A DNA stretch of 64,000 bases from Planctomycetaceae bacterium (GCA_015485495.1 WFTL01000058.1:8379-72378); one strand, 5' to 3'; positions 25,257 to 55,971 are shown, numbered from the stretch's first letter. Program-made: numbers and translations. Notes: generated from the sequence alone by a model not told the origin.

Positions 25257-26135
25257 ATGTCTGATTCTTCTGATCCCAGGACGCCGCACATCGTTTCGGC
25301 CACCACGGAATCGTTCCGCACCGACGTGATGGAAGCGTCGCTGCAGGTTCCCGTTGTGGCCGATTTCTGGGCCGACTGGTGTGCGCCCTGCCGCCAGCTG
25401 ATGCCCATTCTGGAAAAGCTGGCCGAAGAATACGGCGGCCGTTTTCGGCTCGTCAAAATCAACGTCGACGAATGCCCGGAAATTGCCGGCGCGTTCGGAA
25501 TCCAGTCCATTCCGTTCGTCGTGGCATTCGTCGACGGCCAGCCGGTTTCGCAGCTTCCCGGAGCTCATGATGAAGCATCCGTCCGAAGCTGGCTCGACAG
25601 CTTTCTTCCGTCTCCGGCAACGGAAGCCTACAACAGCGGACTGGCCGCCGAAGCAGACGGGCGGCATGAAGAGGCGGAAACGGCCTTTCGTTCGGCTCTG
25701 GAAGCAGAACCGGATCGGCCGGAATTTTCCATCGCCCTGGCCCGGGTCCTTCTGGCTCAGGAACGCGTCCAGGAATGTTCGGAAATCATCCAGACTCTGG
25801 AAGCCCGTGGATTCCTGGAACCGGAAGCTCAGTCCATTCGCGACCAGTTGAACATGCTCACTGAGGTCAGCGAATCGGGGGGAACCCGCCAGGCACGGGA
25901 AGCTCTGGCAGCCGACCCGGATAATGCGGAACTGCAGATCCGGCTTGCCGAAGCTCTCAGCGTGGATCGCAGCTACGAAGAAGCATGTGAACTGCTGCTG
26001 AACGTCATCCGCACTCATCAGGGTGACGTGCGCGACCGGGCCAAGGACGTCATGGTGACCGTGCTGGCCGCGATGGGTCCGAAATCGCGGCTGGGAGCCG
26101 ACTACCGGCGCCGCCTGGCCACGGCGTATTACTGA
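25257..26135 (+). CDS. thioredoxin-domain protein with a C-terminal TPR-like domain (YbbN/CnoX-like)
   Basis: A thioredoxin fold with a WCAPC active site is followed by about 180 aa of helical TPR-like repeats. Confidence 0.8.
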   Translation: MSDSSDPRTPHIVSATTESFRTDVMEASLQVPVVADFWADWCAPCRQLMPILEKLAEEYGGRFRLVKINVDECPEIAGAFGIQSIPFVVAFVDGQPVSQLPGAHDEASVRSWLDSFLPSPATEAYNSGLAAEADGRHEEAETAFRSALEAEPDRPEFSIALARVLLAQERVQECSEIIQTLEARGFLEPEAQSIRDQLNMLTEVSESGGTRQAREALAADPDNAELQIRLAEALSVDRSYEEACELLLNVIRTHQGDVRDRAKDVMVTVLAAMGPKSRLGADYRRRLATAYY

Positions 26136-28270
26136 GTCTCAGAAGCGCTGGCGGCCGCTGATCCGTCGTCGGCCAGCAGCACAATGGCCAGAGACGTTCG
26201 TCCCGGGATGAGATCGACCCGAGTGGCGTAGACCGTGTGCGTCCGGTCGTCGACATATTCCCCGCGTTCCCGCAGAACGGGCAGCACCTGAGGCCACTGG
26301 CTGCACAGACAGCCCATCGCCTGCCCCTGAAGATCGGAACAGCAGGACCCGTCGCGTCCCACCCGAATCAGGACTTCACAGTTGTTGTTCAGAATGAAAG
26401 CCTGCCCGGCGTGCTGCAGACGGTGCCGCAGAAAAGCGTCCACCACATGCGTCAGAGACGCTTCGATCATCACGAAGCCGAAGGGGTCTTCCGATTTTTC
26501 ATCGAACACCGGCACCGCCGACACGACCAGCCCCGTATCGGTCTCCCGGGATTCGGATGCGCACCGGGTCAGCAGTGAGGTGAGCACATCGTCCGGATGT
26601 CCGTCCATGATCTGACGATGGCAGGAAGACAACGGACCGGATTCCAGCCGGCTGGCCGGAACGGCACGCACCGAAGACGCGTCCCGCCGCTGGCGTTCCA
26701 GACGCACCACCTGCCGGTACTGATCCCCGTCCACCTGACAGTACGTGACGGCCGCAAAGTCGGTGTTTGTGCGCAGCAGACCTCTGTAAATGACGGCCAG
26801 TCGGGACCGCCAGGTGGAAAGATCGTCCCGATCGTCCCCGTGCACCAGACAGTCGATGATTCCCTGAATCGGCGGCAGACTGGCCATGAAACGGGTGTTG
26901 CGTTCCAGACTGCGCAGAAAATTCATCAGATTCGTGCGCAGCTCCCGCCCTTCGCTCTGCATGCTGCCATAAAGCTGCCGCCGCTGAGTGCGCCCGGCCA
27001 TCCAGCGTTCCACCGCGTCGGCCAGTTCCGCGGCCGACTGATAACGGGAGTGCTGATGAAACTTCAGCGCCCGCTGACAGATCATCGCCAGACCGACAGG
27101 CAGGTCCGGCCGCGCGGCAAGCGGATCGGGAGACGGCTGCGATGCGATCCGCTGAAGCAGGTCTTCCACGGACACAGACTGTTCCCGGTCATCACGACTG
27201 CGGTCCGCATGAGGGGCCTGGCCGGTCAGCATGGTGAACAGCACCGCTCCCAGACCATACACATCTGTTCGCTCGTCGATTCGATCCTGATCTCCGACGG
27301 CCTGTTCCGGAGCCATGTACAGCGGTGTGCCGATGACCTCCCCGGCGATGGTCTGTTCGAAGCGGCTGTCTGCAGCACTGATGTCGCCGGAAAGCAGATG
27401 TCCGGTTTCGAACTCTTCGGTCAGCCGGGCCAGTCCCCAGTCCAGAACGATGACCTGTCCGAAGCTGTCCAGAGCCACGTTTTCCGGCTTCAGATCCCGA
27501 TGAATCACGCCGCGGGAATGTGCGTAAGCCACTGCCTGACAGACACCCAGAAACGCGGTCAGCAGCTTGTGCAGATCCATCGTCGTGTCTTCACCCGCAT
27601 GCCGGCGCTCGTGGTAGTCCTGAATCGCTTCCGCCAGCGTGCGTTTCCCGACGAACCGCATCGCATAAAACGGCTGCCCGGATTCGGAATCCGTTCCGAA
27701 CTGGTACAGAGGAACAACGTTGGGATGTTCGAGGTATCCGGTGATTTCTGCCTCACGGCAGAAACGCTGCCAGGCCCGAGGAAACTCCGCCGCTTCGGAA
27801 CTCAGTTCCTTCAGGGCCACCGTCCGCTTCAGCTTTTCATCCCGTGCCAGCCACACGACGCCCAGGGGGCCGGCCCCGAGCTGCCTCAGGATCGAAAAAC
27901 GCGACGTCATCTGCCGAAGTTCGGCCGATTCCGGGCTGCCGGGCGGCGGCACATCGGGAACACCCGCATCCAGCCGATCGGCCGCATCCGGGATGCTCTG
28001 TCCGCTCTGCTTCAGAAGCTCCTGGCGCACAGAATCCTTCAGACGCTGCCGCGCATCCTCAGGCAGACCAGGAGCCAGGCCGTCTTCACCGTCGGCGATC
28101 CGCCGCGCCACATCGGACAGGGAATCCTGAATCAGCCGCGACCAGTCCCGATACTGCGCCGAACGGCGGCTGTCGGAGATGCTTTGCTGCAGCGCACGTT
28201 CTTTGTCGGGAGACAGCATCCCCGACAGTGATCTGGAGATCAGTTCTGCGGTTTCCCGGTCATTCGGCAT
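26129..28270 (-). CDS. fusion protein: anti-sigma-like N-terminal domain + Ser/Thr protein kinase + C-terminal soluble sensor-like domain
   Basis: The start is taken at MPNDRETAEL, an 11-nt overlap with the sigma gene stop. The N-terminus LSGMLSPDKERALQQSISDSRRS matches the spacing of zf-HC2 anti-sigma domains, with Ser at the H/C/C positions. The Hanks kinase motifs are intact (LGAGPLG, VALK, RFCREAE, HRDLKPEN, DWG, MAPE). No TM helix is present. Confidence 0.85.
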   Translation of the reverse strand: MPNDRETAELISRSLSGMLSPDKERALQQSISDSRRSAQYRDWSRLIQDSLSDVARRIADGEDGLAPGLPEDARQRLKDSVRQELLKQSGQSIPDAADRLDAGVPDVPPPGSPESAELRQMTSRFSILRQLGAGPLGVVWLARDEKLKRTVALKELSSEAAEFPRAWQRFCREAEITGYLEHPNVVPLYQFGTDSESGQPFYAMRFVGKRTLAEAIQDYHERRHAGEDTTMDLHKLLTAFLGVCQAVAYAHSRGVIHRDLKPENVALDSFGQVIVLDWGLARLTEEFETGHLLSGDISAADSRFEQTIAGEVIGTPLYMAPEQAVGDQDRIDERTDVYGLGAVLFTMLTGQAPHADRSRDDREQSVSVEDLLQRIASQPSPDPLAARPDLPVGLAMICQRALKFHQHSRYQSAAELADAVERWMAGRTQRRQLYGSMQSEGRELRTNLMNFLRSLERNTRFMASLPPIQGIIDCLVHGDDRDDLSTWRSRLAVIYRGLLRTNTDFAAVTYCQVDGDQYRQVVRLERQRRDASSVRAVPASRLESGPLSSCHRQIMDGHPDDVLTSLLTRCASESRETDTGLVVSAVPVFDEKSEDPFGFVMIEASLTHVVDAFLRHRLQHAGQAFILNNNCEVLIRVGRDGSCCSDLQGQAMGCLCSQWPQVLPVLRERGEYVDDRTHTVYATRVDLIPGRTSLAIVLLADDGSAAASASETQ

Positions 28271-28856
28271 GCGAAGCGACCTTTTGATCGTGGAACCAGC
28301 GTGCTCCCACGCACTGAGCCAGAGCCAGCCTGGCACGGTGGAGCCGGACCCAGAGATTCGACGGTGTGATCTGCAGTTCCTGACAGATTTCTTCTGAAGT
28401 CATCTCTTCCATCACGCTCAGCACGAACACGTCGGCCTGTCCCTGCGGCAGACGTTTCAGGCAGTCTTTGACCACCTCCCAGATTTCCCGCGACGCCACC
28501 TGGCCATCCGGCGTGGCGGACATGAACGCCCCGTTCTTCCAGTTGCCCTTCTGATCGAACAGTTTTTCAGACGGATCATGACTGCCGTCGGACACGCCGT
28601 CCCTGTCGTACCGGGCCCGCCTCCGGATGTGGTCGATGAGCTTGCGTTTCAGAATGCCCAGAAGCCACGCCCGTTCGGTCCCGTCGCCCGTGTACCGATG
28701 CTGGAACCGAATCCCTGCCAGAAACGTTTCCTGAACGACTTCTTCCGCCGCATTGTCGTCGCGCAGTCGGGATACGGCGTAACGAAACAGGTAATCCCCG
28801 TATTCGTCGACCCAGTTGTCCGGATTCAGGCCCGGAGCGGGCTGCGGATCGGACAT
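28260..28856 (-). CDS. ECF-type RNA polymerase sigma-70 family factor
   Basis: Region 2 (YGDYLFRYAVSRLRDDNAAEEVVQETFLAG ... WLLGILKRKLIDHIRR) and region 4 (QADVFVLSVMEEMTSEEICQELQITPSNLWVRLHRARLAL) are present. Confidence 0.9.
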   Translation of the reverse strand: MSDPQPAPGLNPDNWVDEYGDYLFRYAVSRLRDDNAAEEVVQETFLAGIRFQHRYTGDGTERAWLLGILKRKLIDHIRRRARYDRDGVSDGSHDPSEKLFDQKGNWKNGAFMSATPDGQVASREIWEVVKDCLKRLPQGQADVFVLSVMEEMTSEEICQELQITPSNLWVRLHRARLALAQCVGARWFHDQKVASHAE

Positions 28857-30897: not shown

Positions 30898-31137
30898 CAG
30901 CGATTCGCGTCCCCGTCCCTGTGCGGGACGTTGTCTGAATCGCTGAGGAATCGGAAGCCCGTTGCACGCAGCGCCGCTGCCGGGCTTCCGCGTACCACCT
31001 GGGAATCCGGTCTCCGATCCGTCCGGACGCCGGAACATGGTTGTCTGCAGATCTGAATCGTTCGTCCGTCCTGAATCGGCCGCTGAACGGGAGCGGTGCT
31101 GACGGACCGGAACGATGTTCTTCGGGAGTCCGACACG

Positions 31138-31689
31138 ATGTCTGCTGAATTCACGGAACAAAACGTCATCCGGGCCCAGGAAGGCTGCCGCGCCGCCTTC
31201 GATGCTCTCACCAGAGACTTCTATCAGTTCGTGCGCCACATCGTCCAGGAACATGTGCGCCACGACGCCGAAGCCGACGAAGTCACTCAGGAGGTCTTCC
31301 TGAGGGCGTACCGCAAGCTCCATCAGCTGAAGGAACCGGCCGCGTTTCCGGGATGGCTGAAACAGATTGCCGTACGGCTGTCCATCAATCAGATCAACCG
31401 GCGTCCGCCGGAACGGGCTCGCGAACCGGCACTGTTCGAACAGCTTCAGGAAGCTGGGGAACGGCCTGGCAGAGTGCTGCTGGAGCGTGAAGACGCGCAG
31501 CAGCTTCGGCTGGGAATCAGCCGTCTGGGACAGGTGGACCGTCAGACGCTGGTGGCCTTCTATTTCGAAGGCCGATCTCTGCGTGAGATGGCCGAAGATT
31601 TCGGTCGACCGGTCGGCACGATCAAACGGCGGCTGCACACGGCCCGCAACCGACTGAAAGAAACGCTGACGGCCATGCAGCCGGCCTGA
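31138..31689 (+). CDS. ECF-type RNA polymerase sigma-70 family factor (no adjacent anti-sigma gene recognised)
   Basis: Region 2 (DEVTQEVFLRAYRKLHQLKEPAAFPGWLKQIAVRLSINQ) and region 4 (RQTLVAFYFEGRSLREMAEDFGRPVGTIKRRLHTARNRLKE) are present. The start is at MSAEF. Confidence 0.9.
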   Translation: MSAEFTEQNVIRAQEGCRAAFDALTRDFYQFVRHIVQEHVRHDAEADEVTQEVFLRAYRKLHQLKEPAAFPGWLKQIAVRLSINQINRRPPERAREPALFEQLQEAGERPGRVLLEREDAQQLRLGISRLGQVDRQTLVAFYFEGRSLREMAEDFGRPVGTIKRRLHTARNRLKETLTAMQPA

Positions 31690-32040
31690 CGCAACGGCAA
31701 CAGCCGCCAGCGGTGCAGGGACGCACCACGGCGGCATCCCGTTTCTGATCCACGGTGGACTGCCTGATTCACTTCAGTCAGATGCCCGGCTTTCTGGCAG
31801 AAGGGAATGTTCTGACGTATGGGTTTCCTGGTCGCCGGCAGGCTGCGAGATGTCCCGTGGCGGGAAACGGTCGTTGCCGGGGACAAAGACGGTTGCCGTG
31901 CGACGCGGCACAAGGAAACGCTTCCAGTCTGTGTGTGAACCGACCTGGCTGAAAGTCGAGAAGCAGGTGAACCGGACGGCATCCCTGCGCAAACAGGTGA
32001 AGCTGCTGTTTTTCCTTCAATGCGCGTCCTTCAGTGCGCT

Positions 32041-32547
32041 TCATTTCGGATTATCGGGCGATGGGGGCTGATTGTGTTCGTCCGCATGGATGATTGTGAC
32101 GATGGCCGTGTGCAGCCGGGCCGGTTCGTCGGTTCCGATGGTGAGCGTCCGGCCGCTGCGACGTTCCAGTTCCACGGCCTGCAGGCCCGACGCGTTGAAC
32201 AGCCAGCCGGTGCGGGTGCGGCGGATTCCCCAGCCATCCACCCGGCGCGTGCGTGTTTCCCTGGCAGACAGAATGTCGTCGGCGAGTACGGTTGTGCGAA
32301 TCAGACCGGGGCCGAAAAACACGACGACGCGATCCGGAAAGACGACGACCGACAGAGAATGGAACAGCAGCAGACAGGTCCACAGAATCAGGGCAGTGCC
32401 TCCGCAGACTGCGGCAGCCACTGGGCTGCCTCCCCAGAAAAGTCCGATGCCGCCAGCGGTTGCGACGCATGCCAGCAGCCCGACTGTCAGGCGAATGACG
32501 GTGGCCGGCTGGGTATGTCGATAGATTTCCGCCATGATGCTGTCCAT
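32041..32547 (-). CDS. small membrane protein (two TM helices plus a possible bacterial PH-like C-terminal domain)
   Basis: TM segments are VIRLTVGLLACVATAGGIGLFW and AVCGGTALILWTCLLLFHSL. They are followed by a beta-rich segment (VDGWGIRRTRTGWLFNASGLQAVELERRSGRTLTIGT). The start is uncertain (32547, 32535 or 32604). Confidence 0.5.
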   Translation of the reverse strand: MDSIMAEIYRHTQPATVIRLTVGLLACVATAGGIGLFWGGSPVAAAVCGGTALILWTCLLLFHSLSVVVFPDRVVVFFGPGLIRTTVLADDILSARETRTRRVDGWGIRRTRTGWLFNASGLQAVELERRSGRTLTIGTDEPARLHTAIVTIIHADEHNQPPSPDNPK

Positions 32548-32843
32548 GTGGCCAGTTGCTGACGGAGTCAGCCGGTCCGCCGACTTCCGTTGCCTGTATT
32601 CCATCTGTCTGCCGGGAAAGGAACCGCGGTTCGCACCGGAGCAGCCGGCCTGCCGGGGGCAGCCCGGACCAGACCGCTCAGCACCGTTTCTCCACCGCCG
32701 AAATCGGATGCCAGGTTCCTCCCGGCAAAATATGCCGAACGCGGGTTTGCGCAAACGCGGGTTTTTGTTAGGTGTACGGGTTCAGGGATGAATCGCACCG
32801 CAGGTCCGGTGCGCTGTCAGTGCTGATCCGGGAAGGGATTCCC

Positions 32844-35735
32844 ATGCAGAACTCCATTCTAAAGCTGCTGTCCATTGCCGGTGTCATCGGAATCGGCACG
32901 CTTGTTGTGATGGAAGTCCATCAGCAGCTTCCACTTCCGCAGCAGACGGGATCGGTTTCTGAAGGATCTTCGGGGACCGAAACGGAACTCATGGCACCGA
33001 CCACGGTGTCAGAGTTCGAAGCGAGCCTGGAGTCTGCCGGCGACGGTTCACGTTTCACTGCCGGCGCCCGTCGGAGCACGACGGCTGCGGCGATGGATGA
33101 GAACACCGATCCGTTCAGTTTCACAGAACCGGATCTCAGTGAGTCGCCGGACGACACCGGTCATGTGGCCGCCCGGAATCACCGTGCGGACGCCGCCCCC
33201 TACGCTCCGGATACGGCTGATTCTTCAGCCGGTCAGTCCGTTCCCGTTCATCCGGCCGGATTCGGTGAGGATCTTCCGGATTCCAAAACATCTGAAATGC
33301 GGCTGCCGGGCGACGAGGATTCCGAAACGGGATTCTCTGTGGATCTGTTTCCGGACGACGGAGACACGGGCGATTCCTCCACAGCGCCTCTGCCGGATAA
33401 TCTGCCCGATGATTTTCCGGACAACGATGTGCACACGGCGGCTCCGTTTCCTGATGACGACGGCCACGATCACGCGGAAGAACAGGACGATGGTGCAGAC
33501 ACCGTCCCCGTCCGGGAACGGACTGACATCTCAGAGCGGCGGGCGGAGCCGAAGGGGGCTCCGCGCGACTCCAATACGCTCATGTTCATCAGTGGGGGAA
33601 CCGACGCTGCTGACGGGGGACCATCGAAGGCGCCTGCGCCGGACGAATCGGAAGATCCGTTTTTTCTGCCCGATGGTGATCCGGAACCGTTCTCTCCCGC
33701 GGATGCCGATGCGCCGCCTCTGAAACCGGCTCCGGATACCTTCGAAGAACCCGTTCTGCCGCTCGATGACGAAAACGTCATGGATCATCCGGACACGGAC
33801 GACCGTTCGTCGGAGCATTCCATGTTCGAAGCGGATGAACAGGATGAGGAGGATGGTCTGACCATCGGCAGTTCTCCGGATTCGGGTGTCCAGTCCGATG
33901 GTCACTCGGAAACACATCCGAGTGAGTTCCCCCCGGATCTGCCGGCGGACGATTCGGAGATGTTTGACGAGATTCTTCCGGAATCGGACGACGAGCCGCA
34001 TTCGGTTCCGACTGAACAGGACCGTTTGTTTTCCGATCCGGACGATCGTCAGGAACGGTTCGATCGGGAGCCGCCGTCGCGCAGCCTGAACGTCCCTGAC
34101 GACGAACGGCCCGGCCGTTATCACACGCGTCCGTCAGAATCGTCCCGCACGCGTCCGCCCCGCAGTCGTCTCTTTCATGCCGATCCGCTTTCCGACGGGG
34201 GGGCACAGCCGGACTCGTCGCGACTGGCTCGCGATGCACACGGTCCTTCGGTGGAGATCATTCCTCTGGGCGGCGGCGGTATCGCTCAGCGGATTCCATC
34301 GGACGATCTGACGGGAGCCGGCATCGTGCAGACATCAGCATCGTCGGTCGTTTTGCGGCCGCATCTGACGGTGAGCAAACGGATGCCGGAACAGGCGACA
34401 CTCGGGGTGCCGCTGACCTATACCCTTGTGGTCGGCAATGAGGGACAGTCGCTCGCTCATGATGTTGTGGTTGAAGATGTCGTTCCGGCCGCAGCGCGGC
34501 TGGAACGTGTCGATCCGCCGGGCGAGTTCGACAAAGATTCCAGAACGCTTGTCTGGGAATTCGATGAACTCGATGCCGGCGCTCGCCGGGAAATTCAGGT
34601 GGAAATCACGCCGGTGGAACAGGGAGTTCTGGATACCGTTGCCACCGTTCGGTTCAAAGCTCAGGTCCGGACACGCACCGTCGTCCGTTCTCCCCATCTG
34701 GTCCTGGAAACGGCCGTTCCCCGGGAAATCCGTCTGGGAAGCGAAGTGTCGCTGCAGTTCCTGATCCGCAACGACGGCGATGGTCCGGCAGCGGACGTTG
34801 TCCTGCGAAGCAATCTGCCGGCCGGTCTGAGTCACCCGATCGGCAATGATCTGGAATACACCGTCGGCGATCTGGAGCCGGGCGATGAACGGGAAGTCAT
34901 TCTCAACGTGGTTGCGAAGGAACCGGGTCATTTCGTTCACACATCGGAACTCATTGCTTCCGGAGGTGCTGCGGCCACGGCGGAATCGAAAGTCAGCGTG
35001 ATCGGCCAGCAGATCCAGATCATCCGTCGGGGGCCGCCCCGTCGATCAGTGGGTCGCACGGCAGTGTTCGAGAACCGACTGACCAACGAAACGGCGTTTC
35101 CCGCACACGATATTCTCGTTGTCGAATCGGTGCCGGAGGGAATGAAGTTCGTCCGGGCATCGGACAGCGGTGCCTGGAATCCGGAAGACCGGACGGTCAT
35201 CTGGAGAATCGATACGATTCCGGCGGAAGAGACGAAGGTGCTGGAAGTGGAGCTGCTGGCTCGGGCTCCCGGCGATCACGAAAGCGTGGTGACGGTGACA
35301 GAAAATGCCGGCTTCCGTTCCGCAGCCCGCCATGTCACGTCCGTTGAAGAGATCAACCATCTGGGGGCCCGCATCAGCGGGACCGATCATCCGGTGGCCA
35401 TCGGAGAAACATTCGGGTTCGATATCACGGTTCAGAATCGGGGGACGAGTCGAGCGACCGGTGTTCAGCTTGTGATCGAACTGCCTCCCGGGATTCGTGG
35501 GGTGAGTACCGGACGCAACGGCCCGCAGGCGCGGGGTGCCCGCCATGGACAGGAGATCCACTACCGGTTCGACAAAGTCGACATTGCCGCCGGCGATGAG
35601 AAGGTTTTCCGGATCAACCTGAGAGCCCTGCGGAAGATGTCAGATGCTCCGGTGCGGGCCAGGATCCGCTATGATCAGGGACGCAACGACATGGTAACGT
35701 CCGAGTCGGTCACGGTCGTCGAAGACGGCCCGTAG
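32844..35735 (+). CDS. membrane-anchored giant protein: long acidic disordered region followed by DUF11 (conserved repeat domain) repeats
   Basis: The start at MQNSILKLLSIAGVIGIGTLVVM is an N-terminal anchor. About 480 aa of D/E/P/S-rich sequence follow. Then come at least four repeats of the DUF11 pattern (TYTLVVGNEGQSLAHDVVVEDVVP ..., LQFLIRNDGDGPAADVVLRSNLP ..., FENRLTNETAFPAHDILVVESVP ..., FDITVQNRGTSRATGVQLVIELP). Confidence 0.8.
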   Translation: MQNSILKLLSIAGVIGIGTLVVMEVHQQLPLPQQTGSVSEGSSGTETELMAPTTVSEFEASLESAGDGSRFTAGARRSTTAAAMDENTDPFSFTEPDLSESPDDTGHVAARNHRADAAPYAPDTADSSAGQSVPVHPAGFGEDLPDSKTSEMRLPGDEDSETGFSVDLFPDDGDTGDSSTAPLPDNLPDDFPDNDVHTAAPFPDDDGHDHAEEQDDGADTVPVRERTDISERRAEPKGAPRDSNTLMFISGGTDAADGGPSKAPAPDESEDPFFLPDGDPEPFSPADADAPPLKPAPDTFEEPVLPLDDENVMDHPDTDDRSSEHSMFEADEQDEEDGLTIGSSPDSGVQSDGHSETHPSEFPPDLPADDSEMFDEILPESDDEPHSVPTEQDRLFSDPDDRQERFDREPPSRSLNVPDDERPGRYHTRPSESSRTRPPRSRLFHADPLSDGGAQPDSSRLARDAHGPSVEIIPLGGGGIAQRIPSDDLTGAGIVQTSASSVVLRPHLTVSKRMPEQATLGVPLTYTLVVGNEGQSLAHDVVVEDVVPAAARLERVDPPGEFDKDSRTLVWEFDELDAGARREIQVEITPVEQGVLDTVATVRFKAQVRTRTVVRSPHLVLETAVPREIRLGSEVSLQFLIRNDGDGPAADVVLRSNLPAGLSHPIGNDLEYTVGDLEPGDEREVILNVVAKEPGHFVHTSELIASGGAAATAESKVSVIGQQIQIIRRGPPRRSVGRTAVFENRLTNETAFPAHDILVVESVPEGMKFVRASDSGAWNPEDRTVIWRIDTIPAEETKVLEVELLARAPGDHESVVTVTENAGFRSAARHVTSVEEINHLGARISGTDHPVAIGETFGFDITVQNRGTSRATGVQLVIELPPGIRGVSTGRNGPQARGARHGQEIHYRFDKVDIAAGDEKVFRINLRALRKMSDAPVRARIRYDQGRNDMVTSESVTVVEDGP

Positions 35736-54451: not shown

Positions 54452-54729
54452 GGGATTCTCCCTGGAAACAGCACGGAATAAACAGCACGGAATAACCGGG
54501 AATGACACAGCTATGCGCATGACAACGTGACCGGACTTCAGTTTATGTGGTTCGTTCCGACAGCACAGCATGCAGACTCGGAAATTCCGCAGCCGTCTGT
54601 TCCCGAAGGGCGGGGCGGCATTTCTTATTCCCGATTCGTTGACACCCTTCAGACAGCCGGGACAATGCGCATCTGGTGACGAGCTTCTGTCACAGCGGGC
54701 CGCTGCCGACCGGTTCGGACCGCGTGACG

Positions 54730-55971
54730 ATGGCGAACGCAACAGACGGCGGGCTGAACATGGGTTTTCGACTGGTGGTGACCAGTGGTCAGGATGCCGA
54801 TCGCAGCATCGTTCTGGATGAAGGTGTGACGACGGTCGGCCGCGGCACCGCGGCCGATGTGCGGCTGCCGGACCTGAGTGTTTCGCGGCAGCACTGCATT
54901 CTGGAAGTGCGGGGGCCCCGCCTGCTGATTGCTGACGCCGGCAGTTCCAGCGGGACGTTCGTGAATTCCAGCCGTATCGACGGCGGAATCGAACTGAAAC
55001 CCGGGGATGAAATTCGGGTTGGAGACACCGTTTTGACGGTGAGTCATTCTGCGGATTCGCAGAAGACGATTCCTCCAGGACCCGGTGGAAGTTCGGCGTC
55101 CGGACGGCTGCCGGATCTGGCGGGACGGACGATTCATGATTATGAACTGGTCCGTCTGCTGGGCGAAGGACGGACGGGCGTGGTCTATCTGGCACGCGAT
55201 GTCCGTAAGGAACGTGATGTGGCGGTCCGGATTCTGAAGCCGGAAGTCACGGGCAGTCCGGAAGGAATGGCGCGGTTTGTTCGCGCCATGAAGACGATGC
55301 ACGGGGTGCGGCATGAAAACCTGGTCCGCATCTGGAATGCCGGCCGGACAGGCGATCTGGTGTGGGTGTCCATGGAATACGTGGACGGCGAGAATATGGC
55401 TCAGGTGATCGACCGCATCGGCACCGCCGGGATGCTGGACTGGGAGTACGCATTTCGCGTCGCTGTGCACACGGCCCGCGGTCTGGAAGCGGCTGCGGAG
55501 CACCGCATCGTGCATCGAAACATTCGTCCGGAAAGCATTCTCATGCGGACATCGGACCAGGTCGTCAAACTCGGCGACACCATGCTGGCTCGGGCCCTGG
55601 AAGGAACCATGGCGGAGCAGATCACTCGTCCTGGAGAACTCATCGGTGACCTCACCTGGCTGGCACCGGAACAGACCACCGGTTCGGCCGACATCGATAT
55701 CCGGTCAGACATCTACGCGCTGGGAGCCACCTGCTATGCTCTGCTGACCGGGCGTCCGCCCTTCACGGCAGGAACATTTCCCGAACTGCTGCAGAAGATC
55801 CGTACAGAGCCACCGGAACCCCCTCGGAACTTTCAGCTTTCGATCAACGACCTGTTTTCGGGCTGTGTGATGAAAATGCTGGAGAAACGTCCCGAGGACC
55901 GTTATGAGACTCCTGCTGCTCTGCTGAAAGATCTGGACCGAGTCGGCACGTTTGCCGGCGTGTCCGTCTGA
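54730..55971 (+). CDS. FHA domain protein fused to a degenerate Ser/Thr kinase domain (predicted pseudokinase)
   Basis: An FHA domain is present (TVGRGTAADVRLPDLSVSRQHC ... SSSGTFVN). The kinase fold has a G-loop (GEGRTG) and APE, but VAIK reads VAVR, the alpha-C Glu position is Ala (RFVRAMK), HRD reads HRN (nt 55519-55521) and DFG reads DTM. The start is at 54730 or 54760. Confidence 0.8.
   Translation: MANATDGGLNMGFRLVVTSGQDADRSIVLDEGVTTVGRGTAADVRLPDLSVSRQHCILEVRGPRLLIADAGSSSGTFVNSSRIDGGIELKPGDEIRVGDTVLTVSHSADSQKTIPPGPGGSSASGRLPDLAGRTIHDYELVRLLGEGRTGVVYLARDVRKERDVAVRILKPEVTGSPEGMARFVRAMKTMHGVRHENLVRIWNAGRTGDLVWVSMEYVDGENMAQVIDRIGTAGMLDWEYAFRVAVHTARGLEAAAEHRIVHRNIRPESILMRTSDQVVKLGDTMLARALEGTMAEQITRPGELIGDLTWLAPEQTTGSADIDIRSDIYALGATCYALLTGRPPFTAGTFPELLQKIRTEPPEPPRNFQLSINDLFSGCVMKMLEKRPEDRYETPAALLKDLDRVGTFAGVSV

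Follow-up and report, generated by a model that had tools for sequence, protein, structure and literature searches.

The window, that is the whole 64,000-nucleotide stretch of Planctomycetaceae bacterium DNA that was analysed, carries on its minus strand two adjoining genes: a gene for an ECF sigma factor of 198 aa (28260-28856), TIGR02943-like and matched by both Sigma70_r2 and Sigma70_r4_2, and a gene for a soluble 713-aa protein (26129-28270, stop codon at 26129-26131) in which an anti-sigma-like module, a Ser/Thr kinase and a dCache domain are joined in one polypeptide.

Gene order and the sigma factor

The 713-aa protein begins at an ATG (28270) internal to a large minus-strand ORF (26129-28336), and the ORF coordinates bear out the overlap of 11 nt (28260-28270, minus strand) between this ATG and the sigma gene which had been reported in an earlier note on this DNA; such a stop/start overlap implies that translation of the two genes is probably coupled. 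In all 10 distinct loci compared, the sigma gene lies directly upstream of the kinase fusion gene, its stop codon overlapping the kinase-gene ATG in nine cases and abutting it in the remaining one, and no other conserved neighbour was found beside the pair. The overlap measures 8-22 nt in the kinase-fusion loci (L001-L005 and L088-L091) and likewise in pairs of a sigma gene and a gene for a free ZAS protein (L085-L087). Because Met1 is present in 111/112 full-length homologues of the 713-aa protein, because homologous free ZAS proteins align Met1-to-Met1 with its N-terminus, and because the sigma stop overlaps or abuts the ATG in the 10 loci, ATG 28270 is judged to be the real start.

The sigma factor scores 157.9 bits against the TIGR02943 model, for which the NCBIfam trusted cutoff is 162.2, and several of its orthologues (60-79% identical) bear the JGI label "TIGR02943 family". 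Its sigma2-sigma4 linker contains a conserved LFDxxGxW motif (in its longer form, DP[ST]xxLFDxxGxW), and a Cys pair, C132/C182, is found in sigma4. The sigma2.2 patch, A36-A37-E38-E39 (AAEE), corresponds in the alignment to DAED in SigE and is acidic at both positions in 122/122 orthologues. Assignment to the phosphorylation-activated ECF43 type was considered and rejected, the DAED patch not being lost to S/T, in agreement with the earlier note, which had looked to anti-sigma release instead. As the acidic RNA-polymerase-binding patch is kept, the sigma factor should be intrinsically active and should require an inhibitor; no other anti-sigma candidate was found conserved near the sigma loci. 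A conserved ECF promoter or regulon for this sigma factor was looked for and not found.

The kinase and the dCache domain

The description of the 713-aa protein as lacking a TM helix agrees with its hydropathy profile, which peaks at 1.31 (Kyte-Doolittle, 19 residues), and no TM segment occurs among 120 homologues of the fusion protein either. Between the N-terminal module and the kinase runs a variable linker rich in Ser and Thr (13.8% and 11.6%, respectively; residues 93-123, 27902-27994, minus strand), which in some homologues contains an insert of about 90 aa. The Hanks-type Ser/Thr kinase domain that follows (residues 124-425; 26996-27901, minus strand) matches Pfam Pkinase with an E-value of 5.9e-36 and carries GxGxxG, K154, E173, HRDLKPEN (257-264), DWG (277-279) and APE; K154, E173, HRDLKPxN (H257-N264), D277-W-G279 and P321-E322 do not vary among 32 homologues, nor does T307 of the activation loop in the family. 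The kinase had been called intact in the earlier note, and on these motifs it is predicted to be an active Hanks Ser/Thr kinase.

The C-terminal domain of about 280 aa (residues 426-705; 26156-26995, minus strand), previously described as resembling a soluble ligand-binding module, has indeed the fold of a dCache (double-PDC) ligand-binding domain and is modelled by AF2 with a pLDDT of 89.2 and a pTM of 0.85. Its comparison with the PDB gives 114 matches at E<=1e-3, nearly all of them dCache ligand-binding domains, including TlpA, TlpQ, vpHK1S-Z8 and 2p7j, with a probability of 1.00 for all those listed; the TM-score to 3LID/3LIE and 2P7J is 0.63-0.71, and the domain profile reaches histidine-kinase sensors annotated as PF21623 with E-values of about 1e-22 to 1e-32. 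Three arginines, R523, R526 and R535, form an invariant cluster, and R541 is nearly invariant. Because TM helices do not flank the domain, it is predicted to be cytoplasmic in the fusion protein.

The N-terminal anti-sigma module

Residues 1-92 (27995-28270, minus strand) form a Zn-less, ZAS-derived class I anti-sigma domain, for which AF2 (pLDDT 76.6) predicts helices H1 (2-15), H2 (21-33) and H3 (35-59), a loop and H4 (71-90), i.e., the three-helix bundle, linker and fourth helix of class I anti-sigma domains, with the former Zn site at the break between H2 and H3. In Foldseek, RsiW from its complex with SigW ranks first, and anti-sigma domains (RsiW, MucA, RslA) account for 8/14 matches, every one of which has E > 2 and none of which is significant. 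L10, S14, I47 and S50 do not vary among 112 homologues, every face of helix 1 is conserved, and the linker after the module is free to vary.

The alignment of residues 10-40 to the ZAS consensus, given in the earlier note, proved to exceed chance: hhalign places the module against an 86-member zf-HC2 family with a probability of 91%, an E-value of 1.1e-6 and a score of 38.3 over 68 columns, as compared with a maximum of 17.0 over 196 column-shuffled profiles, and the HMM of the kinase N-termini scores three free zf-HC2 proteins at 19.5, 13.4 and 5.5 bits, aligned in exact register over 1-42 (maximum of 11.2 bits in about 3,000 shuffles). The profile search proposed at the time gives a divided answer, since PF13490 matches 21/46 N-termini of the family (best E-value 6.5e-6), whereas the N-terminus of the window protein itself matches none of the Pfam or NCBIfam anti-sigma models, PF13490 failing even at E<=1. 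Homology of the module to zf-HC2/ZAS, as judged from these profiles, is thus established at the level of the family. The closest annotated relatives of the sigma factor (34-36% identity) are each followed by a zf-HC2 protein of 64-69 aa whose start overlaps the sigma stop; lengths in the free zf-HC2 group as a whole run from 57 to 87 aa. The 713-aa protein begins with a class I anti-sigma domain whose ancestor is a small, soluble ZAS anti-sigma factor, the ancestral partner of the TIGR02943-like ECF sigma factor of the window, and to this module a Hanks kinase and a dCache ligand-binding domain are joined; the fusion recognised in the earlier note is upheld by profile homology at one end and by the dCache fold at the other. 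This suggests that the kinase fusion is the missing anti-sigma factor of the kinase-linked sigma family.

The ancestral Zn site has four ligands, C4, H30, C34 and C37, at which the window protein has D4, S30, S34 and S37. The first of these positions (28259-28261, minus strand; Cys4 in free ZAS) is Asp in 102/112 homologues; the other three, in the columns of H-x3-C-x2-C at the H2/H3 junction (28160-28183, minus strand), are not conserved. Position 30 holds Q, H, A, R or E and hardly ever Ser, position 34 is S/N/D (Ser in 48/112, N or D in 53/112), and position 37 is S/A/T/L (Ser in 57/112, A or L in 30/112); the full H-x3-C-x2-C occurs in none of the 112 homologues and the S-S-S triad in four. 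The replacement of Zn ligands by Ser, as noted earlier, is thus real in this protein, but it is not a property of the family, and the fourth ligand, C4, had been overlooked. All four ligands have been lost, and the module is best regarded as a ZAS descendant and not as a functional ZAS member.

Across the family, Ser makes up 16.1% of the fused module, as compared with 6.8% of its free ZAS relatives (a 2.4-fold enrichment) and 5.7% of the kinase domain, an enrichment that would fit a kinase acting on the module. Conserved Ser that are new with respect to free ZAS occupy positions 14, 44, 50 and 52, those at 14 and 50 being invariant and lineage-specific and that at 44 near-invariant; S12 and T/S8 are ancestral, being found also in the free ZAS family. 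The conserved Ser are placed within predicted helices, and helical segments make poor kinase substrates; a structural or interface role is equally possible for these residues.

Control of the sigma factor and known systems

On balance, the two genes probably constitute a self-contained cytoplasmic signalling module, in which the ZAS-derived domain inhibits the sigma factor and ligand and kinase drive its release; binding of the sigma factor by the N-terminal module and its release by phosphorylation are what we infer. The N-terminal module would still bind and hold the sigma factor translated together with it; its first helix, with the invariant L10, would lie on sigma4 and its fourth on sigma2. 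In ECF17, ECF18 and ECF19, helix 1 meets sigma4 through a Leu-Leu contact (PMC7406223), and the invariance of both L10 and sigma L177 was counted in favour of a similar Leu contact here. The dCache domain would bind a cytoplasmic small molecule, possibly an anionic one, as suggested by the invariant Arg cluster, and ligand binding would switch the kinase by way of a long stalk helix extending from the C-lobe. Kinase activity would then lead to sigma release, most likely through phosphorylation at several sites in the Ser-rich module or in the linker, in cis or within a dimer; ligand and kinase would in this way have taken over from the ancestral redox input.

A different role for the module, which we consider unlikely, is that of a degenerate, non-inhibiting tether presenting the sigma factor to the fused kinase, so that phosphorylation of the sigma factor itself, for example in the sigma2-sigma4 linker, sets its activity. 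Direct sigma phosphorylation is indeed what occurs in the only characterised pairs of neighbouring ECF sigma and Hanks kinase, EcfP/PknT and EcfK/PknS of ECF43 (PMC8999054, PMC13147305), and in PknS, too, 3-4 antiparallel helices in a bundle, followed by a flexible linker, are predicted ahead of the kinase domain, no function being assigned to them (PMC13147305); in the PDB, PknS was matched neither by the kinase N-terminal profile nor by the free-ZAS profile. EcfK is phosphorylated in the sigma2-sigma4 linker, which in the window sigma family is unusually conserved, but the linker motif is common to ZAS-partnered, kinase-less relatives and therefore is not a kinase-specific adaptation. Moreover, the window sigma factor retains the acidic sigma2.2 patch whose absence makes ECF43 sigmas dependent on phosphorylation, and an intrinsically active sigma factor paired with an anti-sigma-domain homologue most simply means inhibition.

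It is quite improbable that release is allosteric, with no phosphotransfer to sigma factor or module and with other substrates for the kinase, or that the module is a vestige without sigma binding, kept solely to autoinhibit or dimerise the kinase. Conformational inputs drive many anti-sigma domains (PMC8999054), the window module is too degenerate to match any anti-sigma model, and an FHA-kinase protein encoded at 54676-55971 of the window points to wider Ser/Thr phospho-signalling in the organism; in addition, the mirror-tree comparison gives no sign of sigma-specific co-evolution of the N-terminal module, the correlation of the sigma factor with the kinase (r 0.77) being higher than that with the N-terminus (r 0.66). 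Against these readings, the two-gene synteny is strict in 10/10 loci whose other neighbours are unrelated, which speaks for sigma factor and fusion protein being direct partners; residues common to free ZAS (L10, S12, L19, R38, F40) are retained in a module whose helix 1 is conserved all round, and four invariant residues would not have survived in a remnant domain over an overall divergence of 43-67%. The proposal of the earlier note that S30, S34 and S37 replace the redox switch as phospho-acceptors whose (auto)phosphorylation frees the sigma factor is highly improbable, since, for all that the three Ser stand exactly in the H-x3-C-x2-C columns of the window protein and that Ser is the majority residue at 34 and 37, conservation argues strongly against it, the triad being kept in 4/112 homologues with position 30 almost never Ser, and a mechanism essential to the family cannot depend on residues that the family does not retain.

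The reading of an inhibiting module released through ligand and kinase may be set beside several known systems. The free ZAS proteins (zf-HC2, PF13490) that accompany TIGR02943-type sigmas, such as WP_045598951.1 downstream of WP_045599025.1 in Burkholderia thailandensis, share with the fused module the register from Met1, the gene position, the stop/start overlap and residues L10, S12, L19, E/Q23, R38 and F/Y40; their sigmas share with that of the window the AE[ED]xVQ[ED] patch, the LFDxxGxW linker motif and the Cys pair. Unlike these standalone proteins, the window module is devoid of Zn ligands, Ser-rich and fused to kinase and dCache, and it carries, besides, a conserved loop and helix 4 (APGLSxDAKxRL); free sigma/ZAS pairs adjoin genes for thioredoxin/CcdA or disulfide oxidoreductases, whereas the fused pairs are without conserved neighbours. 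With the class I anti-sigmas at large (RsiW, RslA, RskA, ChrR, RseA, MucA), the module has in common the four-helix topology and a gene at +1 to the sigma gene, and the Zn motif is absent from about 44% of class I domains as well (PMC7406223); C-terminally, these anti-sigmas carry a TM helix with an extracytoplasmic domain, a cupin or nothing, no fusion with a Hanks kinase having been described for them, and their release occurs by regulated proteolysis, redox or conformational change.

As to the claim that this wiring had not been described, it holds for the cis fusion of anti-sigma domain and Hanks kinase, which is new, no description of it having been found in the searchable literature; the control concept is not wholly new, because control of RshA and RseA by PknB is already known in trans (PMC8999054). 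In M. tuberculosis, PknB acts in trans on the ZAS anti-sigmas RshA (SigH) and RseA (SigE), freeing the ECF sigma factor (PMC8999054, PMC13147305), and thereby provides, with a Hanks kinase and a ZAS-type anti-sigma, a mechanistic precedent for the proposed release step. PknB is a separate PASTA membrane receptor with Zn-containing targets, whereas here a single soluble, Zn-less polypeptide would combine both functions, the phosphorylation being a deduction. Adjacency of sigma gene and Hanks kinase is shared with ECF43 (EcfP/PknT of V. parahaemolyticus, EcfK/PknS of X. citri), but ECF43 sigmas have no DAED patch and are activated by direct phosphorylation, unlike the AAEE-bearing window sigma, and PknT and PknS are transmembrane receptors, unlike the soluble window kinase with its dCache domain, predicted to be cytoplasmic. 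Finally, this domain is related in fold and sequence to the dCache sensors of histidine kinases and chemoreceptors (PF21623, PF02743; 3LID/3LIE, TlpA 6DTM, TlpQ 6FU4); those lie in the periplasm, at the N-terminus and between two TM helices, whereas the window dCache is C-terminal, apparently cytoplasmic and placed directly after the kinase.

The sigma/kinase gene pair and its surroundings

The ECF sigma gene (28260-28856, minus strand; 198 aa) and the kinase-protein ORF (26129-28336, minus strand), which from the ATG at 28270 encodes 713 aa, overlap by 11 nt. Re-derivation of the ORFs on the minus strand confirmed the coordinates and features that the earlier note had given for the pair, including the absence of a TM segment from the 713-aa protein (top 19-residue hydropathy 1.31) and the position of S30, S34 and S37 at nt 28160-28183. 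The ATG at 28270 is taken as the start codon because 111 of the 112 full-length homologues have Met1, because sigma stop and kinase start also overlap in nine distinct loci besides the window, and because homologous free-standing small proteins (see below) align to the kinase protein Met1 on Met1.

The full-length architecture is shared by over 100 proteins of planctomycetes (Fuerstiella, Planctomycetaceae, Pirellulaceae, Mariniblastus), with identity down to 43%, and public annotation calls these proteins only 'serine/threonine protein kinase'. The synteny is strict and translationally coupled: at every distinct locus inspected (the window and, in other genomes, L001, L002, L003/4, L005, L006 and L088-L091) the sigma gene lies directly upstream of the kinase gene on the same strand, usually with an overlap of 8-22 nt, and the genes flanking the pair are different each time. 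A further 33 pairs were assigned by a heuristic, in which sigma and kinase are matched by the same length of their longest contig, confirmed for L003 and L004; a profile search of genome contigs returned two true family loci, the remaining matches reflecting the generic HRDLKPEN pattern. The 35 sigma/kinase pairs submitted to mirror-tree and partial Mantel tests show no clear signal of co-evolution, their N-terminal distances being close to saturation. Natural sigma/anti-sigma read-through fusions were sought among the long sigma matches, all of which are upstream start-codon overcalls, and a search upstream of six sigma genes found no shared ECF-type promoter.

Other regulatory genes are found in the window. 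About 2 kb away, on the opposite strand, lies a second ECF sigma gene (31096-31689, plus strand; Sigma70_r2, r4_2, Sigma70_ECF), behind which come a 180-aa ORF that Pfam does not match (32020-32562, plus strand), and that might encode an as yet unrecognised anti-sigma factor for this sigma, and the gene for a 987-aa DUF11-repeat surface protein (32772-35735, plus strand). A 431-aa protein (54676-55971, plus strand), in which a phospho-Thr-binding FHA domain is fused to a Hanks kinase, indicates that the same 64 kb encodes further Ser/Thr phospho-signalling components. Convergent with the kinase gene is a thioredoxin-TPR gene (YbbN/CnoX-like; 25257-26135, plus strand), the 3' ends overlapping by 7 nt (26129-26135). 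The free sigma/anti-sigma pair of Burkholderia (L086) immediately follows thioredoxin and CcdA genes, and in L001 a thioredoxin-like gene is close by; the other family loci do not share the thioredoxin-TPR neighbour, so this connection could be a coincidence.

Anti-sigma descent of the N-terminal module

The nearest annotated relatives of the sigma factor, found by tblastn on annotated plasmids of Burkholderia, Sphingopyxis and Ciceribacter, share 34-36% identity with it; in all three, a soluble protein of 64-69 aa, annotated in Burkholderia as 'zf-HC2 domain-containing protein', starts on the sigma stop codon. These small proteins were picked by genomic position alone, and an HMM of the kinase N-terminus scored them at 19.5, 13.4 and 5.5 bits, in exact register (1-42 to 1-42); the maximum among about 3,000 composition-matched shuffles was 11.2 bits. 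The small-protein family assembled comprises 86 homologues of 57-87 aa, mostly PF13490, in which M1, C4, T8, L10, S12, L19, E23, H30, C34 and C37 are near-invariant. Aligned by hhalign to 46 kinase N-termini, this family of free ZAS (zinc-binding anti-sigma) proteins gives a probability of 91% and an E-value of 1.1e-6 over 68 columns, Met1 on Met1. The score is 38.3, whereas 196 controls with shuffled columns score 8.9 +/- 1.9 (at most 17.0) and the reversed alignment scores 9.1. When the 46 N-termini are scanned singly, Pfam zf-HC2 is the family matched most often, by 21 of them (best E 6.5e-6), ahead of one with four matches. On this homology, the N-terminus of the kinase protein is an anti-sigma domain by descent, and the likeness to an anti-sigma consensus, pointed out in the earlier note, is borne out by both the profile alignment and the zf-HC2 matches. 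Residues 1-120 of the window protein itself match nothing in Pfam or NCBIfam, and its N-terminal copy, among the most degenerate of the 46, has no match in the family-level Pfam scan either.

The AlphaFold2 model of the module (pLDDT 76.6) consists of four helices (2-15, 21-33, 35-59 and 71-90), the break between the second and the third coinciding exactly with the former metal site. Foldseek places RsiW bound to SigW at rank 1, and 8 of the 14 listed matches are RsiW, MucA or RslA; every E-value is above 2, none is significant, and the search is used as supporting evidence only. A profile of the N-terminus finds no anti-sigma factor among PDB chains, a negative result without weight because a genuine zf-HC2 profile likewise misses the solved ones.

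The ancestral zinc site has four ligands, C4, H30, C34 and C37, the first of which had escaped the earlier note, while the other three positions were correctly named. This site is lost in the kinase family: among 112 homologues, position 4 is Asp in 102, the ancestral His30 is replaced by a mixture (Q18, H18, A18, R14, E13), and the ancestral Cys at positions 34 and 37 have given way to S48, N31, D22, C5 and to S57, A16, T14, L14, C9, respectively. The H-x3-C-x2-C motif is kept by none of the 112; the leftover His (16%) and the occasional Cys at ligand positions support a ZAS ancestry. The same variation rules out a conserved functional triad at positions 30, 34 and 37; indeed, Ser occupies all three in only 4 of the 112 homologues, and the phospho-switch at S30/S34/S37 proposed in the earlier note is effectively excluded by conservation, although the fusion of anti-sigma domain, kinase and sensor on which it was built is real and conserved.

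Conservation lies elsewhere in the module. L10, S14, I47 and S50 are invariant in the family, and S12, L19, S44, G61 and R76 are kept in at least 90% of it; L10, S12 and L19, together with R38 and F40, are common to the free ZAS family, while S14, S44, S50 and S52 are new in the fused lineage. Ser makes up on average 16.1% of the fused module (15.2% in the window protein) versus 6.8% of its free relatives, compared with 5.7% of the kinase and 8.5% of the dCache domains of the same proteins; being a family-level property, the enrichment does not stem from genome composition. Most of these Ser residues fall in predicted helices, and their abundance fits multi-site phosphorylation, without proving it.

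Kinase, dCache domain and sigma factor

The Hanks kinase (residues 126-410; Pfam/NCBIfam, E 5.9e-36) is intact, as the earlier note had read it: K154, E173, HRDLKPxN, DWG, PE and the activation-loop T307 do not vary among 32 homologues of 43-67% identity, so the enzyme should be active. In the homologues P0081, P0084, P0085, P0100 and P0103 (L091 2501-4888), an insert of about 90 aa, with the repeated pattern LL/ML-x-G-x-[VI]-[TD]-x-[ED]-Q...LG-x-[FY]L-x-x-x-G-[IL]-[IL], separates the anti-sigma module from the kinase; it may resemble T2SSE_N/MshEN-type domains.

The C-terminal 300-320 aa or so have no Pfam or NCBIfam match, and a profile of residues 418-702 gives only weak matches, to chemoreceptor ligand-binding domains, among PDB sequences. 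Searched exhaustively, 1.84 billion representatives yielded 1,915 proteins matching the C-terminal profile at E<=1e-3; outside the kinase family, the domain sits at residues ~40-280 of large proteins. The nine of these that were inspected are all either hybrid histidine kinases or GGDEF-EAL proteins; in each, the region matched corresponds to PF21623 (HK_sensor_dom_bact), in eight dCache_1 also matches below threshold, in six a HAMP domain comes next, and in the seven checked for hydropathy two TM helices flank the region. The AlphaFold2 model (pLDDT 89.2, pTM 0.85) and its 114 Foldseek matches in the PDB at E<=1e-3, nearly all dCache domains (TlpA, TlpQ, PctD, Tlp3, Mlp24/37, vpHK1S-Z8 and 2P7J; TM-scores up to 0.71), identify the supposed soluble ligand-binding module as a dCache domain (residues 426-705; 26156-26995, minus strand). 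Unlike its histidine-kinase and GGDEF-EAL homologues, it has no TM helix and, as a signal peptide is also lacking, it is cytoplasmic; Cache domains being overwhelmingly extracytoplasmic, this location is unusual and adds a rare case. About 77 cluster representatives (50% identity), a count that includes fragments and some non-kinase proteins, match the domain at E<=1e-30, and most of the full-length ones carry a TM-less dCache behind a kinase. A cluster of Arg in the first PDC module (R523, R526 and R535 invariant, R541 nearly so) hints at an anionic ligand.

The sigma factor, whose orthologues share 60-79% identity, consists of Sigma70_r2 and r4_2, with TIGR02943 as best NCBIfam match (157.9 bits, just below the cutoff of 162.2); membership of the SigK clade is unsupported, 4NQW matching sigma2 alone at E about 1e-3. 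Its sigma2.2 segment, A36-A37-E38-E39-V-V-Q-E, lines up with the M. tuberculosis SigE DAED, and an acidic residue stands at both acidic positions in every one of the 122 sequences. The core-binding patch is thus kept, whereas exactly this patch is absent from the ECF43 sigmas, in which binding to core RNA polymerase needs phosphorylation (PMC8999054, PMC13147305). Judged by this patch, the window sigma should be intrinsically active and therefore in need of an inhibitor; no other candidate was found conserved near it in the family loci inspected.

The linker between sigma2 and sigma4 is normally variable in ECF sigmas; here residues 95-106 hold the conserved motif DP[ST]xxLFDxxGxW, with F100, G104 and W106 unchanged across 122 orthologues, and sigma4 contains three invariant Cys (C132, C158 and C182). 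The acidic patch, the LFDxxGxW portion of the linker and the pair C132/C182 are common to kinase-partnered sigmas and ZAS-partnered relatives (L085-L087). In M. tuberculosis SigK, according to work cited in PMC7826278, a sigma4 Cys pair forms a redox-sensing disulfide; by analogy, the sigma itself might retain a redox input despite the loss of the zinc site in its anti-sigma. In ECF17, ECF18 and ECF19, the contact between helix 1 and sigma4 is Leu-Leu (PMC7406223); L10, in helix 1 of the module, and L177, in sigma4, are both invariant.

Proposed mechanism and comparison with known systems

Taken together, the N-terminal module would still sequester the sigma factor, ligand binding to the dCache domain would control the kinase, and kinase activity would free the sigma, most plausibly by phosphorylation of the Ser-rich module or of the linker behind it, by analogy with PknB, which acts on RshA and RseA and is a model for kinase-driven release (PMC8999054). 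In its fullest form, which we put forward tentatively and hold to be possible rather than probable, this would be the founding single-polypeptide 'sensor, kinase, anti-sigma' regulator: the dCache domain would sense a metabolite, the kinase would multiply phosphorylate its own Ser-rich, zinc-less domain, and the negative charge would expel the sigma. Three rivals are to be weighed against this scheme. The module could be a docking site serving direct phosphorylation of the sigma, to be set beside an acidic patch of the non-ECF43 type; release could be purely allosteric; or the module could be vestigial, to be set beside its invariant residues. As to its origin, the free sigma/ZAS pairs adjoin thioredoxin/CcdA or pyridine-nucleotide-disulfide-oxidoreductase-like genes, which suggests that the ancestor was a thiol/redox switch later given another input. 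The family would then record an exchange of inputs in evolution, a ligand and a kinase taking the place of a zinc/redox switch while the sigma/anti-sigma core was conserved.

Among the signalling systems of bacteria, ECF sigma factors are a major one. In a large family of planctomycete proteins, of real interest to ECF specialists, the kinase protein itself bears a cryptic anti-sigma domain missed by current domain models and annotations. A concrete, testable mechanism for a kinase-linked ECF sigma can thus be proposed, and the compact, soluble two-gene module may find use in orthogonal synthetic circuits.

The components are each known, namely class I anti-sigma domains, Hanks kinases beside planctomycete ECF sigmas and dCache sensors; kinase control of ZAS anti-sigmas is also known, in trans, and about 44% of class I anti-sigma domains are without zinc (PMC7406223). 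Their union in one soluble polypeptide was not found in the accessible literature; an earlier mention elsewhere is possible. The unexplained bundle of 3-4 helices ahead of the ECF43 kinase PknS, described in 2026 (PMC13147305), may be a related phenomenon; PknS is matched by neither the kinase N-terminal nor the free-ZAS profile in searches of PDB chains. Extension to other ECF-kinase pairs failed, PknS being undetected and the one unrelated pair, L031 (1232-5254, Verrucomicrobiaceae), having no N-terminal module. There, the gene for a 1,079-aa kinase has 48 nt upstream of it the gene for an ECF sigma of another kind (Sigma70_ECF-like, 'TTHWTLV' type); the catalytic domain of the kinase starts at about residue 16, and behind it come a hydrophobic stretch, probably a TM helix, and a long C-terminal part. 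Several ECF groups, in many cases planctomycetal, have a link to Ser/Thr kinases and are listed without an anti-sigma factor; ECF43 alone has a worked-out mechanism, and the other kinase-linked groups, which keep the acidic patch, must work differently (PMC8999054). If true, the proposed scheme would explain the inactive state of kinase-linked groups that have a DAED-type patch and seemingly no anti-sigma factor, and ECF regulation would have a distinct mode in which an anti-sigma domain is phosphorylated in cis.
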